Shown here: positions 3,550-61,700 of the stretch, in pieces
Layout: every line of letters starts with the position of its first letter
Numbering within the stretch: the stretch's first letter is position 1
From: Octopus vulgaris
Lineage: Eukaryota
Direction of reading: 5' to 3'
NCBI GenBank assembly: GCA_951406725.2
Contig: OX597840.1
Coordinates: 1,488,001 to 1,552,000, forward strand
DNA length: 64,000 nt
The notes under the pieces: model-generated
Told to the model about the DNA's origin: nothing
Database searches by the model: none
What the model saw: the letters and a program-made list of their open reading frames with translations, nothing else
Made by a program: the position numbers and the translations under genes

Positions 3550-3988
3550 ATCTGAGAGAACGCATTCTATGCCCTATCCACAAAGGTGAAAGCAGAGCAG
3601 AGGTAAAAAATTTCTGGCCGATCTCTCTGACTTCGCTTATCAGTAAAGTCAAAGAGAGAATCATCAGAAAGAATTTGATGATATTCCTAGAAGAGAATAA
3701 CCTACTGAAAAATACACAGCATGGCTTTCTTCCAGGTGGAAGCTGCGTTACACAACTCCTACAATATTACGACTAGGTTTTGAAACAGCTGTTAGGCCAT
3801 TCCGATGTCAACGTGAAATATCTTGAATTCGCAAAGGCATTTGGTAAGTTAGATCACGGCATGATGTGTCAGAAGCTGCGAGAATTTGGCATTTCCGGTA
3901 AACCGGAAGAGTGGCTGCATAACTACCTTAAAAAACAGAAGTAAAGCGGTTGTAACCAATGGTACCCTTTCTGAGGAATCCCAAATAC
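3550..3988 (+). pseudogene. Decayed non-LTR (CR1/L2-type) reverse transcriptase fragment
   Basis: Frame from 3564 reads CPIHKGESRAEVKNFWPISLTSLISKVKE..QHGFLPGGSCVTQLL..YLEFAKAFGKLDHG..EWLHNYL, then after a frameshift RSKAVVTNG. These are N-terminal LINE RT motifs. In-frame TAG at 3774-3776. Confidence 0.88.
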
Positions 3989-4960
3989 CTGTTTGGATGG
4001 ATTTGAGGGAGTATGCAGGTTTTATCGTGGCCACAGAGGCTGCTGCATGTATTATATCATTTAGTCTAGCCATATTGACATTTGTCTCTGTGGCTATTAT
4101 TTCTGTGACGGTCAGGTTCATGCTATTTATTATTGATGTTGTTTTATTATCAATTTCAATTTTGGGGAGACACCATCGGTGGTCCCTACTGAGATATGTG
4201 CCTTTCAGTTCTTTGATTATGCTATTTTTTAGAGTATTATAATCATTAATTTGATCTTCACTGTTTCCAGGATTTCGATTTGTTTCGTATTCCCTCCCGT
4301 TCATATATCTGTTTGTGGTGTTCTGGTTTCGTGCATTTTTGATATCATTATACATCCCTACAGTCTGGGTTTCTTCGTTTACTTGGTGTTTGTTGGACAT
4401 ATTACGTCTGTCTTCGTATTTTACAGTCCCAGTAAAATACTTATGATAATATCTGGCATTGCTGTGTGGTTGCTATTTCCTGATGTATTTTTTCCTTTTA
4501 AGTGTTCTATTTTGTGTTGAGAATATATCCCCGTATGTTAGCTATTTTATTAGGGTTCATTGTTGTATCTAAATCTTGATCTAGGTTATTTTTCTTCCAG
4601 ATTTTATGTATATGTTGTTTTGTTTCCGTTCTTTCGGTAGAGCACTGCTGCAAAATAGGCATATAGGATTGAAGTACATTCCTCGGATGTCCATTTATGC
4701 GTCTTTAATATTACTTGCGGTTCATGAGGGATAACATCTGCCCCTGAATTTTGAAGGTAATCATTTTCGTAGGATACCAATCCGTTTATTTCCGGTGTTA
4801 AATGGTTTTGCGAGTGTAGTTTTTCGTACTTTTTGTCTAACAAGTTTAAAGTACGTACCTCCCGAATGTTATCCTTGGGTATAATACGGGTATTATTTAA
4901 TTTATTTTTCATTTTTCTGTGATATTTGGTTGTGGACGGAGATGGTCTAATGTTGATTGG
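3989..4960 (-). mobile_element. 5' ORF region of an R4/Dong-like non-LTR retrotransposon, decayed
   Basis: ORFs 4604..4912 and 3849..4400 plus linker give HKWTSEECTSILYAYFAA..TYT*IWKKNN..NPNKIANIR and RWCLPKIEI..LNDIIHAAA. I recognise these as resembling the pre-RT N-terminal region of R4/Dong-type elements. Interrupted by stops. Confidence 0.55.
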
Positions 4961-5839
4961 ATTGCAATGTGATGAGCGAGTTTACAGGTGTTGTGCGAGT
5001 ATCAGAGATGACACAAAGTTAAAACTCCATTTCATTTGGAAAATAGAAAGAGATTTTAGTATTTCATACACAGATATAATTCTAACGATTATGTGAGGTG
5101 GACACTTTACCTTCGTCACGTATATTATCAATCTTACCTGAGGGCAAAGTTAATGATTCTGTTTTAACATGCGTCTGGAAGAGCATGCTGACTATTGACG
5201 ACTTGAAAGGAAGCAGAAATGCATATTAAGCAATGCAATCACTGTGATTCTTCGATTTTCAACTGATGCTATCCATCACTCCGTTCTGTCAGACAACCAT
5301 CAATCCATATACCCTTTTATTCATTACTCACCCATGTATTCAACCATGCATCTAGCCAAACAGCCATTCTTGAAGTCAACCATCACCACGTTTCTTCAAA
5401 TACCGACGCACATCTCCATCAATCCATCCATCCAGTTATCAATCCCAAACCAAACCAGCCATATATCCACCACCCTTCAGTCTATCCTTAGACATCAAGG
5501 AATCCATTATGCCACACAGGCAACATGCCGTTGCCCATCTTTACATACGGAGGCTATGGTGATGGTGATGGTGATTGTGGTGGTATCACTGACAGTTGTT
5601 GTTGAGGTGGTGAGACTGATCATGGTGGTGGCAATGATAGTCAAGGTAACGATTATACAATAATCGGTGGTGGTGGCGGTGACAAAGGTGAAGGTGGTGA
5701 TAATGGTGATTGTGAGGATGGTCGAGCAATGATCTTCGTGGTAATAATGCAGTTCATAAGGATGGTGACGATGTTGTGCTTGTTGTTGCCACCAGTAATG
5801 TTTATTTCAATTCGTGTTAGGTTGTGTTAATAAATAATA

Positions 5840-7224: not shown

Positions 7225-7720
7225 TTGAGTGAGAGAGCAGAGCATGCCATCGAAGTGACACTGGGGTAAAATATACGAAGCCCAGTATACCCATCATGAC
7301 TACCTGTCTGATAAGGGTACACCAGGCACATGCATCACAACCATATGTGTGCGACATGGTGATCTCATATCAAGATAAACAGCACATGACCTTGCAGGTG
7401 GAGCCCAGATATTATTATTATTGTAATCAAAGTGACATGCCCAGTATACCCAGCAAGACTACCCGTCTGATAAGGGTACACCAGGAACATGCATCACAAC
7501 CATATGTACGCGACATGGTGATCTCATATCAAGGTAAACGGCGCATGACCTTGCAGGTGGGGGCCAGTTAGAATTTTCTTCTGGTCGAGTAGCTCACCCC
7601 GCTCAAAAGGTCCCTGAATAAGGGTTGTTTAAGGATATTGAACCCATGTTTCCAAAGACGATCTATCCAAACCTGTAAGAATTCCTTTCAACACACGGCT
7701 ATGATGCTGCCCCACTACTT
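7225..7720. mobile_element. Interspersed non-coding repeat, copy 1, flanked by (TTA)n and with an internal ~130-bp duplication
   Basis: Highly similar to 10922-11380; 7281-7408 is repeated at 7441-7568. Confidence 0.8.
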
Positions 7721-17381: not shown

Positions 17382-18119
17382 GAATGTTATTGCTGTTGCC
17401 TCTGCTACATTTATTGGCCTTGTTTTGCCGTCATGATAAAATTATCATTATAAATGTGATTTTGAGCATTATGATTATTACGGCGAATATTATCATTGCT
17501 GACGCTGCTGCTGTTGCTGCCGCTTCCCCTGCTGCCACCTATGGCGTCAGTGTTGCCGATGTTGGCGCCTTTGTGTTTGCATTTGTTGTTGCTATTATTG
17601 TTTTTTGTTGTTGCTGTGGTTTTATAGTTTTAAATTTTAAATTTCTGTCATTGTGTACTGGTGGGTATTTTATATTTGCAAAAAAAAAAAATTGTTTGTC
17701 TTTTCGTTTTCATTTTTGTTCTGTTTTTTTTTTTTTAATTTTTCTACTGCTTTTAGGAATTTAAGAAGAAAATAAACGTGATTTTCCAATTAAGAATAGC
17801 AATTAAACACAACAACAACAACATCAATGACAACAAGTGCAACACTTTAAAATTGAACCGTAGATGAAAAATGAAATACAATTCATTATAATTGAAATGA
17901 GAAGACATAAGAAAATTAATTGCCATTGTATTTGTTGCTTTTTATTTTTTAGCCCTGAGTCGGTAACCAACAAGCAGATCTATGATCAAAGCATTCCAGA
18001 AACGACCATCAATATACGGATTTTTTAAATTCAATATTACAAGAACTATAATATATCGAGCTTTTTGCTTTGATGTTCTGGTGTATAGCTGGCTTAAATT
18101 TCATGCTGTGCCAAAAATG

Positions 18120-18540
18120 TATGCAAGTCTCTGATGCAAAGCTTTCACTTGTCGTTGATGCATCAGAACTGCAATTAGTACGGTTTTATAGCAATTTTAA
18201 ACTAACCACTTTCATCAGAAAACTGGCTGAAACACATCACAGTGCATGTGATCGCAGACTATTGACGATTTACCTTTCTGTGAAGCATTTTCAGTGCATC
18301 CTTCAGGGAAAGCTTTTCACTATATATACTGACCACAAACCTCTTACCTTTGTCTTGAAGTCCGAACCAGAAAAGTACTCAGCAAGAAAGACTCAACACC
18401 TTGATTTAATATTCAACACATATCCAGTGTACAAACACCGCTGCAGAAGCATTGTCCTACTCTGGAGTCACGAGCCACCTTTGTCTTGAAAAGTACTCAC
18501 CAAAAGAGACTCAACACCTTGACTTTATATTCAACACATG
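18120..18540 (+). pseudogene. Ty3/Gypsy Pol RNase H fragment
   Basis: LSLVVDAS..RKL..HSACDRRLLTIYLSVKHFQCILQGKLFTIYTDHKPLT..KYSARKTQHLD follows the Ty3/Gypsy RNase H motif order (TDAS, YS..DRELLA, FTIYTDHKPL). 18370-18420 is duplicated at 18488-18538. Confidence 0.85.
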
Positions 18541-20400: not shown

Positions 20401-20831
20401 AATGGATGGATGGCAGCACACGCAAAACACAAAAACAATGCCTTCAACTCTAATCGATCAGACCTAAGCTTAAGATAAAGTTGTTCCATCATGCGCCCCG
20501 CCCCGTCTAGCGTTTCGTAGTTCAACGACCATATTGTCCCCCATGATTTCTTTATTTAAAGCTACCATGAAGGAAATTTAGTTACTAATTCTAGCATCAT
20601 GGACGACTAAAAGGTAGGTTTTTTCTTTCGTTGCTTCCTTATTTTCCATGATTCTCAAACTGGACTCTGGCTATGCAGGGGCAGAAAGTTTATGCGGTAC
20701 ACTTGATCTTTGCTCTCCACCATGTCTGCCTTGTCGCTGCTTCTAAACAAGCAGGGACAGCTTTAATTTGGTTACAGACTTTACAAAATATAGTGTGGTG
20801 ATACGTAATAGATTACCTGAAAATCAGACTT

Positions 20832-21247
20832 ACCTATTTTTTTACTACCCACAAGGGGCTAAACACAGAGGGGACAAACAAGGGCAGACAAACGGATTAA
20901 GTCGATTATATCGACCCCAGTGCGTAACTGGTACTTATTTTATCGACCCCGAAAGGATGAAAGGCAAAGTCGACTTCGGCGGAATTTGAACTCAGAACGT
21001 AGTGGCAGACGAAATACCTATTTCTTTATTACCCACAAGGGGCTAAACACAGGGAGGAGAAACAAGGACAGACAAACGGATTAAGTCGATTATATCGACT
21101 CCAGTAACTGGTACTTATTTAATCGACCCCGAAAGGATGAAAGGCAAAGTCGACCTCGGCGGAATTTAAACACAGAATGTAGCGGCAGATGAAATACCGC
21201 TAAACATTTCGCCCAGCGTGCTAACGTTTCTGCCAGCTCGCCGCCTT
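20832..21247 (-). mobile_element. SINE family 1, head-to-tail dimer with apparent TSD
   Basis: Full unit at 21017-21247 plus a headless unit at 20832-21018; flanks aaaatcagact(t/c)acc at 20820-20834 and 21248-21262. Confidence 0.88.
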
Positions 21248-22716
21248 AAAATCAGACTCACCGTTATGAAAATCAGACCTACCGTTATGAGTTCGAATGC
21301 TTCAAATCCGTTAATATGGGACATATCTGAAGGTAAAAAAAAAGTATGCCCAAAGAGAATAGATCCTTCAGTAATCACCAGTATCACGATAGAAAATAAC
21401 TACTTGATTACAGACCCTCGAAAGGTGAAAAACGCTAAGTGAGACTGTGTAGGTCTTGATCTCAGTAACGAGGTAAATAGACGTGAGGAGATTAACCGAT
21501 AAGGGAGCCCGCATCTGGGGGTCACTCTGCTGGAAATAGTAGCCAAATATCCTTCAAATCACATGCTTGTAAGATATAGATGAAAACATACTCTGTGTCT
21601 AACTCTGGGTGAAATACATAACGTGATGGTCATGACCGGAAGCTTTAGGGAGGTGGAGAAAAATAACAACGAGAATGAATAGAAAAAACATTGTGTAATA
21701 TGGTTTTTTATATAATGTAATGTGTCTGAATGAAACTGATGGTCACATGTGGAACGCTTTTGTTCACAAGCTCGTTACTTTAAGACTGATCTAAGGATAA
21801 GTAATAATAAAGTTAACACACTTTAAATAATCTTTTCAGCAACAGGCATAACGCCTGATGTATTGGCGCCGTGGGGAGGAAAAGGGGTTTTCGCTTATAT
21901 CAAGACCTGTTCATGAAAGATTGAAGGGCAAGTCGCCATCGGCGAAACTGGGAATCATAAAGTGAACCCCGAATAAGTACGGCTTAGTATTTTGTCCGAC
22001 GCGCTAACGATTCTGCCACCTCGCAGCAATTATTCTTTTATTCTTTTGCGTGTTTAAATCACTTGACTGCGGCCATGCTGTAGCAAATAATTCTACTCTC
22101 TGTGCAAAGTCTGAAAATTTGGGGAAGGTGACTAATCGATTTAAAAGACAGTATTACTCATGTGATACTTGTTGTATCGAGCCCGAGCCAATAAAAAGCA
22201 AAGTCAACCTCGGCGGCATTCGAACTCAGAATGATTAGTCAGAAGAAATCCTGCTAAGCATCTTGGCCGACACCCTAATGATTCTAGTTGATAGCCGCTT
22301 CACACACTTTAAATACAATGATTTTATAAGTTGGTCTGCTCACGTTGCTATTTTAAGATTACTCTGGGGATAAGCAAGCTGAAATAGAACATGCATTATT
22401 AAATAATATGGTTTTATGATGGTGGAAATTTGAGAGGTAGTATTGTCATTTATGGAACGCTTTGATAATAAATACGATGATATAGATGATACCTGCTTAA
22501 AAAAAGTATTATTGTCATGGAGTTTCTTACAGTTGTAGAAAAGGATTTTTTAACTGGTATTTCTAAATTCGGTATGTGGTGAAGCAATTAGCTGAACTCT
22601 AATTATAATTAGGTTTAAATTATAATATATTTGTGTAATTTTACCCGAAAAAGGTTATTTTAACCTACCGATCTACTTGGTAAAATTCTTAATTAATTGA
22701 TTGATTAATTAATAAA

Positions 22717-23119: not shown

Positions 23120-23244
23120 ATCCCTCTATTATTAATTTTTTAAATATATATATAGGTATATCATCCTTCCCTAGGAGCCAGCTGTAAAATCCGAAAGGAG
23201 TGCAGCTTTTAAGCTACTATGCATATAAAAGGGTAAATATCCAC

Positions 23245-23560
23245 TTCGGTTATGAATGACCATGGGACTATACCTGGAAATTAGTCTCCGAGGTACAAAC
23301 CGGGCAAGGTTGTTTATGGAAGAGCAGCAGTCTTCCATGGATACGAGCCTCCTCTTTCCACGGCACTAATGTTATCCTAGAGAAAAGTTAAGGCCAATAC
23401 AGCTTGGTACAAGTGACGTCACCACTCATTTTCACAGTTGAGTGAACTGGAGTAATAAAGAGTTTTGCTCAAGAACACAGATCATAGCCCGGTCCGGGAA
23501 TCGAACTCATTACGGCAATTTTGTGAGCCCGACGCTCTAACCACTGAGCCAGGCTTCTTT
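23245..23560 (-). mobile_element. SINE family 3 (tRNA head, CORE-like central domain)
   Basis: Head tggctcagtggttagagc..gagttcgattccc; matches the copies at 29155 and 62690. Confidence 0.85.
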
Positions 23561-23604: not shown

Positions 23605-23838
23605 GGCCGTGAGCTGGCAGAAACGTTAGCACGCTGGGCGAAATGCTTAGCGGTATTTCGTCTGCCACTACGTTCTGAGTTCAAATTCCGCCGAGGTCGA
23701 CTTTGCCTTTCATCCTTCCGGGGTCGATTAAGTAAGTACCAGTTATGCACTGGGGTCGATATAATCGACTTAATCCGTTTATCTGTCTTTGTTTGTCCCC
23801 TCTGTGTGTAGCCCCTTCTGGGCAGTAAAGAAATAGGT
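23605..23838 (+). mobile_element. SINE family 1, full-length monomer
   Basis: A-box-like tggcagaaacgtt, B box gagttcaaattcc, central gcctttcatccttccggggtcgat..aagtacc, tail ending gtaaagaaatagg. Confidence 0.9.
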
Positions 23839-24489
23839 ATAGTATGAGAAGACTCTTTAAGTGGTACTTAGTGGAACTGAACGCAAGACCAATTTTTTGA
23901 GGAACAAGCTTCTTAGGCACAGAGCCATGGTTGGAACGTCTTTGATAATAAATCGCTAGTTTAGAAATGAACTGGGACTAAACAGCAACAAGGGAAGATA
24001 ATTTGGCGATGTAGTTTTATATCGTGTGACTGAACGACAACAAATGGCTTGGTCATTTTTGGAATGTTTTGATAACAAATCCGGTTGATTAGGATAAATC
24101 TGTGTCCCCCCCCCCCAAAAAAAAACAAGAACTAAAGTGAAACGCGTTGGCGAATGTGAACGTAGATATAATGTGTTTGTGAAATATAAAGTTGTGATGG
24201 TCACGGTTGGTACATATTTGGTCATAGGTCCAATACATTAGGATTCACCTTGGACCGGAAATGAACAATAGCTACAGCAGCAACAAAAACGAAAGCATTG
24301 TGCCACACAATTTATATTGTCTAACGCTCCACCGATTCTACAATCCAATGGCAGCAAGCAGGTTTTTTTTTCTCTTTTTTCCAAATGAGCAAAGATACAC
24401 AAATAAGGACATTGGAAACAAAAAGAAAACAAAAAAAAGGAAAGACAGCCACACATTAATAACAAAGGAACGAAATGTGTTTCTCTGAG

Positions 24490-28296: not shown

Positions 28297-28440
28297 CTTT
28301 TACTTGTTTCGATCAATTGACTGTGGCCATGCTGGAGCATTGCCTTTAGTCGAGCACATCGACCCCAGAGCTTACTCTTTGTAAGCCTAGTACTTATTCT
28401 ATCGGTGTCTTTTGCTGAAACGGGGACGTAAACACACCAG
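28297..28440 (-). mobile_element. SINE family 2, 3' part
   Basis: ttgactgtggccatgctggagca..tacttattctatcgg..ggggacgtaaacacaccagc. Confidence 0.8.
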
Positions 28441-28542
28441 CTAAGCATTTAGTCCAACGTGCTAACGACTGTGCCAGCTCGCCGCCTTACATACCCACAG
28501 ACATACACACAAACACATATGTATATATATGAATATATATAA

Positions 28543-29092
28543 TCTTTTCTACTCTAGGCACAAGGCACGAAATTTTGGGGAAGGTGGCAACTTGTACTTA
28601 ATTTATCGACCCCGAAAAGATGAAAGGTAGAGTCGACTGAATATAAACTCAGAACGTAGCGGCAGACGAAATACCTATTTCTTTACTACCCACAAGGGGC
28701 TAAACACAGAGGGGACAAACAAGGACAGACAAACAGATTAACTCGATTACATCGACCTCAGTGTGTAACTGGTACTTATTTAATCAACCCCGAAAGGATG
28801 AAAGGCAAAGTCGACCTCGTCGGAATTTGAACTCAGAACGTAGTGGTAGGCGAAATACCTATTTCTTTACTACCCACAAGGAGCCAAACAAAGAGGGGAC
28901 AAGCAAGGACAGACAAAAGGATTAAGTCGATTACATCGACCTCAGTGCGTAACTGGTACTTATTTAAACAGCCCCGAAAGGATGAAAGGCAAAGTCGATC
29001 TCGGTGGAATTTGAACTCAGAATGTAACGGCAGACGAAATACCGCAAAACATCTCAACCGGCGTGCTAGCGATTCTGCCAACTCGCCGCCTT
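28543..29092 (-). mobile_element. SINE family 1, head-to-tail trimer
   Basis: gaaatacc recurs at 28668, 28852 and 29036 (184-bp period); only the rightmost unit has the tRNA-like head. Confidence 0.88.
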
Positions 29093-29154: not shown

Positions 29155-29467
29155 GACCATGGGATTGCACCTAGCAAGTTACCCTCCCAGGCACAAGTCT
29201 GGGCAAGGTTGTTTATGGAAGACCAGCAGTCGCCCATGTATACCGGTCTTCCCTCTCCACACCACTGATGCTATCCAAGGGAAAGGCAAAGGCCGATACA
29301 GCTTGGCACATGTGTCGTCGCAACTCATTTCTACTGCTGAGTGGACTGGAGCAACATGAAATAAAGTGTCTTGCTCAAGAACACAACACGCACCCCGGTC
29401 CGGGATTAGAGCTCACAACCTCACGATGGTAAGCTCGATGCTGTAACCACTGAGCCATGCAACTTCG
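29155..29467 (-). mobile_element. SINE family 3
   Basis: Matches 23245-23560 and 62690-63018. Confidence 0.88.
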
Positions 29468-30224
29468 CAATCGCTTTCATTAGCTTACAACTAATTCTAG
29501 TATGAGCATCTCTGCATACAGATTTGACTACCAGCTCTAAATCGTATAGTTTCCTCAGCACCAAATTAATTGCTCTTGAATCCTAAATCGCTCTTTCTTC
29601 AGTAACTCTTCCCTCTCTCATTTCTTATCTTCTCTTTCACTCCCACCTCTCTCACGTGACTTCATCAGAAGATTTCCGCATGAACATCAGGATTTCATAT
29701 ATCATTCCTTACATAAGATGACGACATGATTGGGGGAGAAATGAGGATTAGAATTAAGAGAGAAAAATTCGAAGGAAATGTTAACCGTTAACAACAGCAA
29801 TAAATGATCTGAAACCACATGGGGAAACCGACAGCAGCAGCAACAACAAGAACAATTACAAAAACAGACTCAAGGATATAAATTACATCCGAAGGAGGGA
29901 AAATCAAATGAGCATTACAGCAGCAACATCAATAATACGATTATTAAAGAAACACGGCAAGGACTAACCCCTCCTCACAAGGAAGCAAAAAAAAATTGTC
30001 TAAAATATATAAAAAAAGAAATCTTCGAAAATTAGTGGGAAAAAAAATCAATTAAAAGTGAAAGAAAAACAATAGGGATAATTATAAGATTATAAAAAAA
30101 GAATAAAAATTAAAATTATAAAACCAAAAAAAGCACTTTCGGAATCGCTGTAAACATTGCAAACACCAGCAAGAACGATATCACGAATAGTAGCAAACGC
30201 AATAAACAACAGGCAAGGCAATAA

Positions 30225-31550: not shown

Positions 31551-32967
31551 AATAACGTTGCCATCGTTGCCACCATTGCCATTTTCATCCAGTTTATCTA
31601 TCGATCCATATATTGTAGTTTTCACTTGAATTGCTGTCGTTGTTGTTGCTATATCAACCTCGTGGTCACGATGACCACTCGGATGGTCAACTAATGGGAA
31701 AATAATTATATTTATCATTGCAATTATATTGATAACTCTTAATGATAGAACTGACATTCTGTTGCCCCTTCATCTTTTTTTTTTTTCCTTTTCTGTTTAC
31801 CTGATGAGCTAAAACTTAGCTGGCTTCCCAGGTAGATCGGTGCGCTATTTTCTAAAGAAGATTGGTTCGGAGCCCAAAGAAGAGAAGAAAGCCATCAAGG
31901 AGGTAGACGAGGTCTTCCCTTGGTTACGATGACTGAAAATTCAAGCTGTTTTAATTAACGGAACAGCCTGCTCGTGAAATTAACACGCTAGTTACTATGC
32001 ACGCCACAGATATGCAAACAGATATGCATCAGATTGACTGATGAACAGAATGTGACAAAGTTAGGACCTTCACATACAGAAAGAGCTCAATGTTTGCCAG
32101 CAAGGACACAAAACGCTGCCGAAAATCGAATTCATGTTCATACGATGGTGAGACGTATACATTAACCACTAAGGTAGGCACCTTTACAGGAAATTGGCAC
32201 ATCAGTTAAAAGAAGCAGAATTTTGTTATGGTTGATAAGAGGCTGCAAGTGGAACCCTTCTGCAGGCAAAGACCTATTCCGTCCCTGCTGTCTGTCTCGA
32301 GGGAAGCGAACATTTAATGGGGCAAAATCTCTTTGAGCTTGAGATACTTGAAGATGACACGGACAGTTTTTTGATATTGTGATTTATTCAAGTTCAGAGG
32401 TTGCAGATCCCGCATTTTCCTTTATATGGCAAAGCATCTCCGTTCTTTATTTAACGTTTATTTCACTTAGGGACTCTAAGCTTAAAAGTTCAATTTACTC
32501 CCAGTTGTCCAAATGGAGACAAGTCGTCGTTGACAGCTGCATTCGTCACAGATGGCATAAAGGGGTTGTAAGCAATTGGCAGATGCATTTTGTTGTCTGT
32601 AGCGAATTGATCAAGGCAAGAGCGAAAAAGTACTCTCTGATAAAAACTGCTAAAGTATGTGAAACCTACAAGTTATAATTTAGCATGCCTGTCGGGGATG
32701 AAGAAAAAAGCAAACGATGAAAGAAGAATTAACCATTTTTCAAACTTTCCTGGGGTCAGCAAATAGGGAATAACAGTTGCTACCCAATTACAAATATCGT
32801 GCTACACAGTGTAATCAGCCGAAGAAATAGTATCTATTAAGGCTCAGATGATTCAAGGATAAAAAAGACGAGTAAGTAAAATTATTTTGATAAAAGAAAA
32901 AATAAACAGAAAGGAAAAGTGCTTCGAAGGAAAAAAGACGTTTAAAAAATGGTAATTAAGAAAAAAC

Positions 32968-33200
32968 GGCGGCGAGCTGGCCGAAACGTTAGCACGCCGG
33001 GCGAAATGCTTAGCCGTATTTCGTCTGTCGTTACGCTGTGAGTTCAAATTCCGCCGAGGTCGACTTTGCCTTTCATCCTTTCGGGGTCGATAAATTAAAT
33101 ACCAGTTACGCACTGGGGTCGATGTAATCGACTTAATACCTATGTCTGTCCTTGTTTGTCCTCTCTGTGTTTAGCCCCTTGTGGGTAGTAAAGAAATAGG
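32968..33200 (+). mobile_element. SINE family 1, full-length, with 17-bp TSD
   Basis: ggtaattaagaaaaaac at 32951-32967 and 33199-33215; tRNA-like head and B box intact. Confidence 0.93.
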
Positions 33201-33744
33201 TAATTAAGAAAAAACAACGGACAATAATAGCAAAATTGTAATATCGTGTGTACATACGTTCAAATGGTACTGTATGAGGTGTGGGGCCCATGCAGCCATT
33301 TCATTTTTCATTTTTATATAATATTCCTCCTCTTTCGTTTTATGTTTATTGTCCCCACTGTGGAGTTGTGTCTGTCCTTGTTATGTCCACTCTTTGCCTA
33401 TAATACAGATTTAACATTACCAATCTACTAATCTGGCTGCAATTAAAGATTACTGATGGATAAATGGGGATGGTAAACATTAACGTCTAAGAACCTTAGG
33501 GATATTGGAATTTAAAAACATACCTTCGCCCTGCAAAAAACTATCACTACAAGAATCGTAAGAAAGTGTAAGATTTTACTCTGTAGTGAAGAAGCCCCCT
33601 TTTTATGTACGTAGTTTCTTATTCAATCGCACCGGGCGGCAGCTCGGCCTAGTGTTTTCTCCTATAGGCTCAGCGCCATAAGTTAAAAAATTTTGCATGT
33701 GACCAACTCACATTTGGCTCAGTTTTTTTGGCAATACTGCCGAA

Positions 33745-37504: not shown

Positions 37505-38475
37505 TGATATCAAAATCACACATCGCCATTACCTTTGGAGCTACACCAATTTTTTCATAGGCCTTGACTTCCTTGATTTCCTTGGCTCTCTAAAGCTCCT
37601 CTTTGGCGCAGGGTCCTTTCTCAATATCCAGTACCCCAAACAGCCACCTGATCTCACCAGTGTTCTGGGTTGTGGGAGGTGGCTTTCCTAGTTGGATCTT
37701 GAAATGGTCCAGCCATTTACAGCTTCCTATCATCGGAACTTGTTCCGTGTCAATTTGATCAACCTCCATTTCTTCCAAACTGTGATCTCGTTGATGATGG
37801 TCCAGCTCTCTTTACACCAAAACCCGTCAACTGCACTTCCATATTTCTGATCTCCCTCAGTGCCACTTCTCTGGCCTCACTGTAAGTGACAAAGAGATCT
37901 TTCTCCATCACCTGCACATTCTATTTCCTTTCCTCCGTAGGATCAGCAAGGAATCGGTCCTTGGCAGCTCTCAGGTGCTCTCTAGCTGCTCAGATATTTG
38001 GGTCTGGAGAACTGACGTTCCTTCTCACTTTCTTTTTCTTTCTCACCAGGTCCGCAGTTGCTTCTACCACTGCTTTGGTGAAGTACCTGTACCTCCTCGT
38101 TACCCTCTCTTCAATTCTTCGAATCACTGTCACTTCTGCCTCTCGACATAAAACACTGAACCTGTTCCTCATTTCTACTGTGTACCTCTCCTGTTCCTTT
38201 TCACCTTCCATGAAAGCTCCCCACTCATAGCTTGCTATCCGGGGATGACACTTACTTTTTCTTAAGCTCACTTGGATCTTACTCATAACAGGCCGGTAGT
38301 TACTGTCCAGTGAACTGTAACAGCTGCATGGTTCTGTGTTCACAACACTATTCCGCCACTTCTACCTCACCAGAATGAAATCCATGTTGGAGTTTAACAA
38401 GTGCGTATCAGAAACGTAGGGCCACATTTTCTCCGGATTCTTCCTGAATTTGGGAAGAAACTATCATCCATTATA
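37505..38475 (-). pseudogene. Decayed RTE-clade LINE fragment (APE endonuclease C-terminus and linker)
   Basis: FRKNPEKMWPYVSD..MDFILVR*KWRNSVVNTE..LDSNYRPV..VSLRK, then YTVEMRNRFSVL and WLDHFKIQLGKPP..IEKGP..EEL. These are degenerate IDYILV/SDHR and pre-RT motifs, with stops and frameshifts. Confidence 0.8.
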
Positions 38476-45021: not shown

Positions 45022-45181
45022 TCTTATTTCTTTACCGCCCACAAGGGGCTAAACACAGAGGGGACAAACAAGGACAGACAAACGGATTAAATCGATTATA
45101 TCGACCCTAGTGCGTAACTGGTACTTATTTAATCGACCCCGGAAGGATGAAAGGCAAAGTTGACCTTGGCGGAATTTGAAC
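45022..45181 (-). mobile_element. SINE family 1, 5'-truncated
   Basis: tatttctttaccgcccacaaggggctaaacac..ggcggaatttgaac. Confidence 0.85.
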
Positions 45182-45322
45182 AAATATTTGGTATTGAGCA
45201 AGTAATTCATTGGATGATACCATCAATTAATGAGGCTAATTCAACCTCTAGTTTAATTTAAAAGCGATTTATTTATTGCTGTAATAGTAATAAACACAAG
45301 CATAAGTGAATTATACTGGTAA

Positions 45323-59890: not shown

Positions 59891-60269
59891 CTTTGCAGAT
59901 TTTGGTTTTGGGTTAAATGGGATAGATTTCAATGTGGGTGGAATTCTGAAATATGTTGTTGAATAAGAATTAATCAGAGAGATTTTGAAGATTTTAATTT
60001 ATTAAAAAGAATAATTGAAAGAAAAGAAGAAAGTGACACCTCTTAATGCTCTTGAATTGGTGAGAATTTTCTCGAGAAATCAAAGCAAAAATTGAGGAAG
60101 CGGAATGAGTTCAAGACATACCTGGTTCAAACTGCCACATAACTATGTAAATCCTTGTATTAACATCGTTCTTTTTTACTGGTGCCTCGACTACCTTTAG
60201 TTTTAATCATGTAGATACGCTAAAAAATATTCGCTTAAATGATTTGCACGAGGCCAGCATATCTATCAA

Positions 60270-60650
60270 TAAGTTGATAAGAGCGACGCCAATATTCAAC
60301 TGGTACTTTTTTCATAGAACCTAAGAAAGATGGACAGTAGAATCGACCTGGGCGGAATTTGGAATCAGAACATAAAAACGGGTATTTTCCACGCTCAGCA
60401 TTTTGTCGGATAAGCTAATGATTCTTCAGTCTCGTCGCCATATAATTTAATAAATGACGGTCTCAAATCTTACCTCAAGGCCAAAGATTCGTGGGCCTAG
60501 GGGGAGGTCGATTACATTGAAACCCAGTGCTCAATTATTTCTTATTTTATCGACCCTAAAAACATGAAAAGCACAACCGATCTCGGACGAAAAACTGCTA
60601 GCCATTTTATAATGCGAGATGACGATTTTGCCAGATCGACGCCTTATATG
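60270..60650 (-). mobile_element. Two old family-1-related SINE remnants
   Basis: tcaactggtact..tcgacctgggcggaatttgga.tcagaac and tcgattacattga..cccagtg..ttttatcgaccc. Confidence 0.55.
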
Positions 60651-61700
60651 CTGTTTAAATATTGGTTTCCAGTTTTGGTAGAATGCCAGCAGTTTGGGGG
60701 CAAGAGCTAAGGCGATTAGTTCTAATCCAGCGCTCGACTAAGATCTATTTTATCAACCCCCATTGGAGGAAAGGCTAAGTAAACATCGACGGTATTTATA
60801 CTTAGAACGTAAACAACGGCCAAAATATCTCAAAGCATTCCAGAACCGGGTAATGTTTGTGTTCTGGAGTAATCCAATTTATTTGACATTGCTCCAGTTC
60901 ACTCAAGTTTCATATATGAGTAATCTTGCGCCTAGTGGGGAACATGTGTCCCAAGAGAGATGGCAATCCGTCTCTATCATTCACTATGTCACGGAAAAGA
61001 TCTTCGTCCTTTTTTATCCTACACACACGCACGCATGTATATCAGTGACAGAAAGAATATGGAGATATATGCATACGTACATAAATACATACATAAATAG
61101 GTACATACATATACATACATACATACATACATACATACATACATACATACATACTTACACACACACACATATATATATATAATATTAAATTGGCTAGACG
61201 CGATATAAAATCTAAAATGAAAAATTCAATTATAACAAATATTTCCGACGTTGCTATAAACAAATATGAAAGATCCTTATAGCCACAAGCGTAATAAATA
61301 TCTATACACTGAGACGGCAGTTGATTGCCCCCACAGCTAACGAGGGTTCCATATTGGCAAGCCAATTTCGCTTGGAGGTAAAGCTCAGCAATAGAATTTC
61401 TCCATCGCTGATGGTTAACATAAATTCTTCCTCACAGTATATAGAATATACCAATTAATTTGTCATCAAAATGTTAATGGGAAAATTATAAAATAATAAA
61501 ATAATAAAGGTAGCTAGACGTAATGTGCTGTGTATATATATATATCAGTATCATCGAGTTAACGAAAGGAGGTGCCCTGGTGTTAAAAAGAGTAGTAATA
61601 TCTTTCTGTACGGAACAACCACGTCGAGGTGGTATTACTTTTCAGTGGAGTTACCATTTGCTTCATTATAGAAATTTTAGAAGTAGCTGCTTCGCTTCTT

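Follow-up and report, generated by a model that had tools for sequence, protein, structure and literature searches.

Exact 184-bp tandem units of an octopus SINE, probably formed by insertion of the element into its own copies

A SINE in the window, the 64-kb stretch of Octopus vulgaris DNA analysed here, is linked to further copies of itself through a single fixed junction; the element probably inserts into its own copies, which yields exact 184-bp units. Visible in the DNA are the tandem structure, a junction that occurs family-wide, target-site duplications that open with GGT(A), and an older head and last unit at the trimer that forms the largest array. The window is microsatellite-rich animal DNA, microsatellites dominating the whole-window repeat-finder output, and together with the SINE it presumably resembles octopod DNA.

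On the minus strand, the trimer extends from 29090 to 28541. One tRNA-type SINE head is followed by two units of 184 bp each and by a third that carries the tail of an older subfamily. Its parts are the following, numbered in brackets by the positions of the SINE monomer:

29044-29090, minus strand: SINE head (positions 1-47), with an A-box-like motif at 29080-29069; older-type and diverged beyond the body behind it
28860-29043, minus strand: unit 1 (positions 48-231), with the GGTATTTC site, a B box at 29016-29007, the central domain and a young tail ending in GAAATA
28852-28865, minus strand: junction 1, from the GAAATA tail end to position 48 (GGTATTTC), located by motif search
28676-28859, minus strand: unit 2 (positions 48-231), with a young tail and lacking the A box
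28668-28681, minus strand: junction 2, identical in sequence to junction 1, located by motif search
28589-28675, minus strand: core of unit 3 (positions 48-140), with a 6-bp deletion and a damaged B box
28541-28588, minus strand: older-subfamily tail of unit 3, about 28 bp being absent between core and tail

Tandem Repeats Finder reports 28589-29043 with a period of 184, 2.5 copies and 87% matches. The earlier note had described a 184-bp trimer: the period stands, whereas the array holds 2.5 units and a foreign tail, its third unit being an 87-nt core. Measured against the majority of six units, unit 1 has 13 differences in 184 bases and unit 2 has 9; the two are 18/184 bases apart, so they are not near-identical, and they have two derived bases in common. 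The 87-nt core of unit 3 carries seven substitutions and a 6-bp gap relative to the young majority. Its tail agrees in 17 of 18 bases with the tail of an old copy (22113-22130) and also matches the consensus built from the loose ends of old copies in public contigs (reference 33133). The chimerism once proposed from the different tail of the distal unit therefore holds, this tail being that of the older subfamily. The first 23 bases of unit 3 (positions 48-70) are of the young type and depart from the loose-end consensus, which is old-type.

The trimer head and last unit look older than the middle units, young units lying inside an older frame. The head has 8 differences in 47 bases, compared with 5/141 in the three young heads (p 0.004) and 13/184 in its own body (p 0.046). 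A T at SINE position 19 is found in the trimer head, in six of the seven older-type heads of the window and in none of the three young heads, an argument on head age that concerns a single locus with a single diagnostic base. Another element, with the same kind of head and a different body, starts about 50 bp behind the trimer tail (28310-28490, minus strand). Members of another SINE-like family with a tRNA-like end (29155-29469 and 23244-23554) are situated 50-60 bp from the heads of the trimer and of the monomer at 23605.

The SINE monomer is 231 bp long. It contains an A-box-like motif (11-22), a B box (75-84), both located by a motif scan of two copies, then a central domain and a tail ending in GAAATA; the inner array units correspond to positions 48-231. 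The element is short and interspersed, has at least 100 copies, carries Pol III A and B boxes and is flanked by target-site duplications at two of five loci, all features of a tRNA-derived SINE, and no tRNA gene was identified by ARAGORN. Among the repeats of Octopus, SINEs predominate (PMC8967140, PMC12988792). Among the octopus tRNA-derived SINEs are OR1 and OR2 (Ohshima and Okada 1994, cited in PMC4824008 and PMC4758252), and membership in the CORE, Meta/MESC or OR1/OR2 SINEs is defined by a central domain matching the published consensus (PMC4824008, PMC4758252, PMC3531059).

Five young-tail loci are present in the window (the trimer, a dimer and three monomers), next to at least eight older relatives. 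The loci other than the trimer, with the duplications flanking the dimer, are:

20835-21245, minus strand: dimer, consisting of a young head, a 180-bp unit, the junction (21011-21024) and a 184-bp unit, delimited by alignment
21246-21262, minus strand: upstream target-site duplication of the dimer, 17 bp, opening with GGTG and matching at 15 of 17 positions
20818-20834, minus strand: downstream target-site duplication of the dimer, opening with GGTA directly behind the tail
32968-33198, plus strand: full-length monomer, the reference of the contig survey
23605-23840, plus strand: monomer ending in GAAATA-GGTAT, with no target duplication found
45025-45182, minus strand: 5'-truncated monomer, its tail followed by AGAA, the opening letters of a 217-bp junction (position 15)

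The arrays of the window thus comprise 2 and 2.5 units. The first unit of the dimer has 180 bp, not 184, owing to a 4-bp deletion, and its last unit shows no greater age than its first (6/184 vs. 10/180 differences). Two checks had been suggested for the units. Greater likeness within arrays is not observed, the differences being 14 and 18 within arrays and 12-23 between loci (13 pairs). Clades by unit position are not visible in the two arrays either: the first units of trimer and dimer are 21/184 apart, compared with 12-23 for the others.

No LINE 3' end with the young tail was found in the window or in eight supplement files of PMC9115989. A fragment of LTR-retrotransposon-type RNase H lies at 18052-18489 on the plus strand (Pfam RT_RNaseH, E 3e-10). 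The open frames 3849-4981 and 37990-38361 have no Pfam match.

The window contains the junction sequence, GAAATACCTATTTC on the plus strand, at three places only: 28668 and 28852, which are separated by 184 bp, and 21011. This motif search confirms the GAAATA-GG-TATTTC junctions that had been pointed out at 28668 and 28852 as the same as that at 21011. With up to two mismatches, eight matches are obtained versus 1.09 expected, a number reached by none of 100 shuffles; six of the eight are the three junctions read on both strands, since the motif is nearly palindromic. The monomer at 23605 does read into the junction, as had been noticed: it ends with GAAATAGGTAT at 23830-23840. A SINE with a fixed junction is thereby borne out, the sequence being identical in all three cases in the window. 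Three of the seven young tails run into the junction, in a window chosen for its multimers, against 3-6% under random GGTA targeting (p 0.0006-0.005); such targeting was rejected as the sole source of the junctions. An assembly artefact was likewise rejected, as the joint is present in contigs of all four sequencing runs surveyed (among the pieces listed, none on the trimer locus itself). Scans of viral contigs, metagenome contigs and prokaryote genomes gave no motif match.

Target-site duplications of 17 bp are found at two of the five young-tail loci, the dimer and the monomer at 32968. The monomer has a perfect copy on either side (32951-32967 and 33199-33215), which opens with GGTA at the first base after the tail. 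Because these duplications open with GGT(A), the target already held the word that follows the SINE tail; per base, the background is 0.003 for GGTA and 0.011 for GGT. No flanking duplication is present at the trimer or at two of the three monomers. The upstream duplication of the dimer is contained in a 21-bp tandem duplication (21248-21290), and the base after the downstream one opens another GGTA.

GGTA occurs once in the SINE head, at position 48, which is the return point of the 184-bp junction. AGAA also occurs there once, at position 15, the return point of the 217-bp junction. Each of the two end words has its own junction.

To survey the family, contigs from four runs were aligned to the monomer at 32968: X2 and X9 belong to organism A, X3 to organism B and X8 to organism D. 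The counts below are capped and come from the matches listed, which for joints are 15 of 847 rows and for loose ends 24 of 1778. All 24 candidate runs consist of contigs and none is on record as RNA, X9 being RNA by guess only. In run X2, at least 263,304 contigs fall on one SINE copy, of which at least 2,254 have a different 5' flank. The 184-bp return from the tail to position 48 is seen in at least 19, 26, 22 and 23 contigs of the four runs. Its presence in all four runs, under three organism labels, indicates an old and general property of the family's DNA. A second return, with a period of 217 bp (33198 to 32983), leads from GAAATA to AGAAACG at position 15 in at least 8, 10, 13 and 8 contigs; no array of that type exists in the window. 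Whole SINE copies placed behind a tail after a spacer are seen in at least 30, 5, 39 and 21 contigs. The rows joining 33202 to 33039 (at least 42, 15, 57 and 30 contigs) were left out, as they may represent the same junction or neighbouring older copies.

Contig exits cluster at SINE position 1 and at the tail end. In all four runs, the commonest listed 3' exit from the reference lies after GGTA (at least 804, 254, 1474 and 599 contigs), and GGTA is the only exit at the end of the young tail among the matches listed. The median loose length of these exits is 255, 15, 116 and 175; the range of 116-255 in the three runs outside X9 implies that many GGTA exits represent monomers with unrelated DNA behind them. 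Joints between opposite strands at the head (reference 32968 to 33039/33041) are present in at least 13-22 contigs of the runs other than X9 and correspond to head-to-head neighbours. In X9, the head/tail depth is 0.51, compared with 0.69-0.75 in the other runs, and relative to tail depth the 184-bp joint reaches 14 x 1e-5, compared with 3-9 x 1e-5 elsewhere, among the matches listed; these ratios are not counted as evidence of expression, as they derive from contigs with capped counts and a shallow run losing single-copy flanks can give the same values.

The explanation towards which we lean, with slight rather than strong confidence, is LINE-driven priming in which the RNA end pairs with GGTA targets, resident copies of the SINE included, and the resulting multimers then serve as source genes. 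In CR1, L2, RTE, I and R1 elements, the 3' end of the RNA pairs with the cut target (PMC6007223), and joining at the 5' side by annealing of the target overhang to the nascent cDNA has been described (PMC4245944). For the octopus SINE, a LINE enzyme would begin where the RNA end GGUA(U) base-pairs with a nicked GGTA target. Ordinary GGTA sites would thereby receive a monomer flanked by a 17-bp duplication. If the target is instead position 48 of a resident copy, its overhang would have the same sequence as positions 48-64 of the new cDNA and would anneal there, so that the new head would be discarded; the product would be a head followed by two units, and no further duplication would arise. 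In the case of the trimer, two young units would have entered an older resident copy.

Multimers formed in this way would keep the promoter and could act as source genes. Since the junctions are far commoner than random GGTA targeting would give, the multimers must, on this explanation, also act as sources. Their RNA could be copied whole, as may have happened for the dimer with its single flanking duplication, or be primed just behind an inner tail, giving monomers that read into the junction. The junction also sets a TATTT two bases behind the tail, and part of the transcripts may end there, yielding an RNA that ends in GGUAU. In mammalian systems, TATTT terminates 42-50% of Pol III transcripts (PMC8466645). 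This step of the explanation is weak here because the same or similar motifs stand elsewhere in the unit: TATTT recurs at SINE position 50, and each unit has between one and three occurrences of TGTTT or TCTTT.

Against self-insertion stand the lack of a duplication at the trimer, the lack of an age gap between the units of the dimer, the lack of a match to a partner LINE in what was searched, and the fact that a single locus is informative. The joint expected from a self-insertion resolved in the ordinary way (from about position 64 back to 1) does not occur among the 15 of 847 joint rows listed. Furthermore, the young-type start of unit 3 means that the host of a self-insertion would need to belong to an intermediate subfamily.

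The multimeric master gene named in the earlier note as the simpler alternative is retained as a part of our preferred explanation; taken alone, it ranks below it. In that stand-alone form, which seems unlikely but merits consideration, a single multimeric founder gene or a few of them would account for all the observations, dimers being copied whole and monomers primed behind the first tail, with no repeated self-insertion, and the extra unit and old tail of the trimer would come from later unequal recombination or gene conversion, unequal recombination having been proposed for SINE arrays (PMC11481361, PMC10702118). The single duplication around the whole dimer with two young units agrees with this, as does the same junction in the three window cases and in runs of three organism labels. 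The two derived bases common to trimer units 1 and 2 point the same way, and a crossover in the core would give unit 3 its young start and old end. However, two separate exchanges would be required to frame the young units with old sequence at both head and tail, no clade by unit position is apparent (in two arrays only, the first units being no closer than other pairs), and each of the two junction types would call for a founder of its own, placed at the one head site that fits its end word.

A jump of the reverse transcriptase between templates is a rather improbable origin of the arrays. Having copied one RNA as far as position 48-52, the enzyme would switch to the 3' end of another SINE RNA by way of the GGUA(U) common to both, repeated jumps building the array in one insertion. 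An exact period, a foreign last unit and the one duplication flanking the dimer would all follow, and template jumps of LINE enzymes have been reported. Moreover, the 3' strand of a predicted 12-bp hairpin (-14.1 kcal/mol) opens with position 48, a possible pause or cut site. On the other hand, the head should then match the RNA of the first unit and all parts should be of one age, whereas the trimer head is older-type and more diverged. The guided template jump put forward in the earlier note is accordingly conceivable through the direct repeat GGTA(T) and not through the inverted repeat.

A circular SINE RNA is probably not the cause of the fixed junction, and the junction constitutes no evidence for a new circular RNA. 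The 3' GAAAUA had been thought to pair with the internal UAUUUC. This intramolecular pairing was rejected: its predicted probability is at most 0.01 in all four monomers (0.0002, 0.0000, 0.01 and 0.0000). In the two monomers with an intact head, the internal site is instead paired by the GAAAUG of the head in the predicted 12-bp hairpin (probability 0.89 and 1.0), whose predicted energy compares with -4.2 kcal/mol for the tail duplex.

The circle of about 184 nt suggested earlier finds no supporting fold, ribozyme or splice signal, and the arrays open at an intact head. In all ten tests, the predicted folds of circular units do not surpass those of shuffled sequences (z -0.5 to +1.6), and no rod-like circle is obtained; the same holds for the folds of whole monomers against shuffles (z 1.23 and -1.51). 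The hammerhead core CUGANGA is absent from both strands of all five doubled units, and a scan with Rfam gave seven matches at E up to 10, all far below the gathering score, with no ribozyme and no tRNA among them. Spliceosomal back-splicing was rejected as well: the tail end is donor-like (AG|GTA), but none of six junction registers has GT-AG, the sole register with a GT start having CG, not AG, before the re-entry point.

A 184-nt circle, ligated by the host after cutting and reverse-transcribed for more than one round, is very unlikely. It would account for the exact period and the fixed junction, its unit length is near that of small RNA circles, and the depleted heads, prominent loose ends at the junction and high 184-bp joint in X9 lie in the predicted direction; yet the pairing, fold, hammerhead, Rfam and GT-AG tests all speak against it. 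So do the intact head that opens both arrays, which a circle would lack, the contig exits at position 1 and at the tail end, the unit differences, which within arrays are in the range of those between loci, and the presence of the junction in DNA-type runs; the duplications opening with GGTA and the old tail are left unexplained. Equally far-fetched is a ribozyme-free variant, in which host nucleases would cut at the hairpins of head and junction, the ligated 184-nt circle would be an intermediate in transposition of a Pol III SINE, and cDNA concatemers would be captured by resident copies. Divergent RT-PCR is uninformative on a circle, the junction being equally present in genomic DNA and in linear transcripts of multimers.

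Tandem SINE arrays of the type TSD-(SINE)n-TSD are described in the blood clam Scapharca broughtonii (PMC11481361). Like the octopus arrays (two of two here), they have a complete first tRNA head and later units cut at a fixed head position; they too consist mostly of 2-3 units, some of mixed families, with one duplication around the whole. Inner clam units lack part of the tail, whereas the young octopus units keep the whole tail with the same GAAATA as the monomers. Unequal recombination is proposed for the clam (PMC11481361), while here the junction word is the start of the target duplication of the monomers. SINE-derived satellites of squamates (PMC10702118) resemble the arrays as well, with tandem partial-SINE units (115-145 nt in the variants described), one longer terminal unit and a similarity of ~81-88%. 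However, they comprise 20-1000 homogenised units with a subtelomeric lean, compared with 2-3 units and one array with a retroposon-like duplication here.

In RTE, CR1, L2, I and R1 LINEs and their SINEs (PMC6007223), as here, the last letters of the RNA are the first letters of the duplication; there, the end is a microsatellite and the match spans one to few bases, whereas the octopus word is non-repetitive, has 4-5 letters and also occurs internally. A large share of the copies of B2, Dip and Ves SINEs is likewise found in dimers and trimers (PMC8466645). Those multimers are described as whole SINEs joined head-to-tail, in contrast to the inner units here, from which precisely the initial 47 (or 14) bases are missing. 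Non-LTR retrozymes (bioRxiv 10.64898/2026.07.22.740005) also form short tandem units, for which a circular-RNA origin is proposed; each of their units contains a type I hammerhead, which is missing from the octopus SINE with its Pol III-type head. No published description of this SINE junction was found in the literature searched, mostly open-access papers. Tandem SINEs and end pairing are both known there, and a self-feeding link between the two was not found.

If the preferred explanation is true, a very abundant SINE picks its targets with a word from its own body. Self-insertion would make multimers that become source genes; target choice, SINE multimers and the initial stage of SINE-derived satellites would then be connected in a feedback loop. 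The two tail types with their two matching junctions (184 and 217 bp) would serve as a built-in control to distinguish insertion, template jumping and recombination.

Other tandem arrangements are present in the window. Three diverged older-type SINEs stand head to tail at 60225-60845 on the minus strand, with a spacing of ~210 bp and short AT-rich spacers, and older-type pairs resembling this array lie at 21825-22305 and 14-555. An unrelated repeat at 7281-7582 is also in tandem, with a 159-bp period, 1.9 copies and a short ATT run between them.
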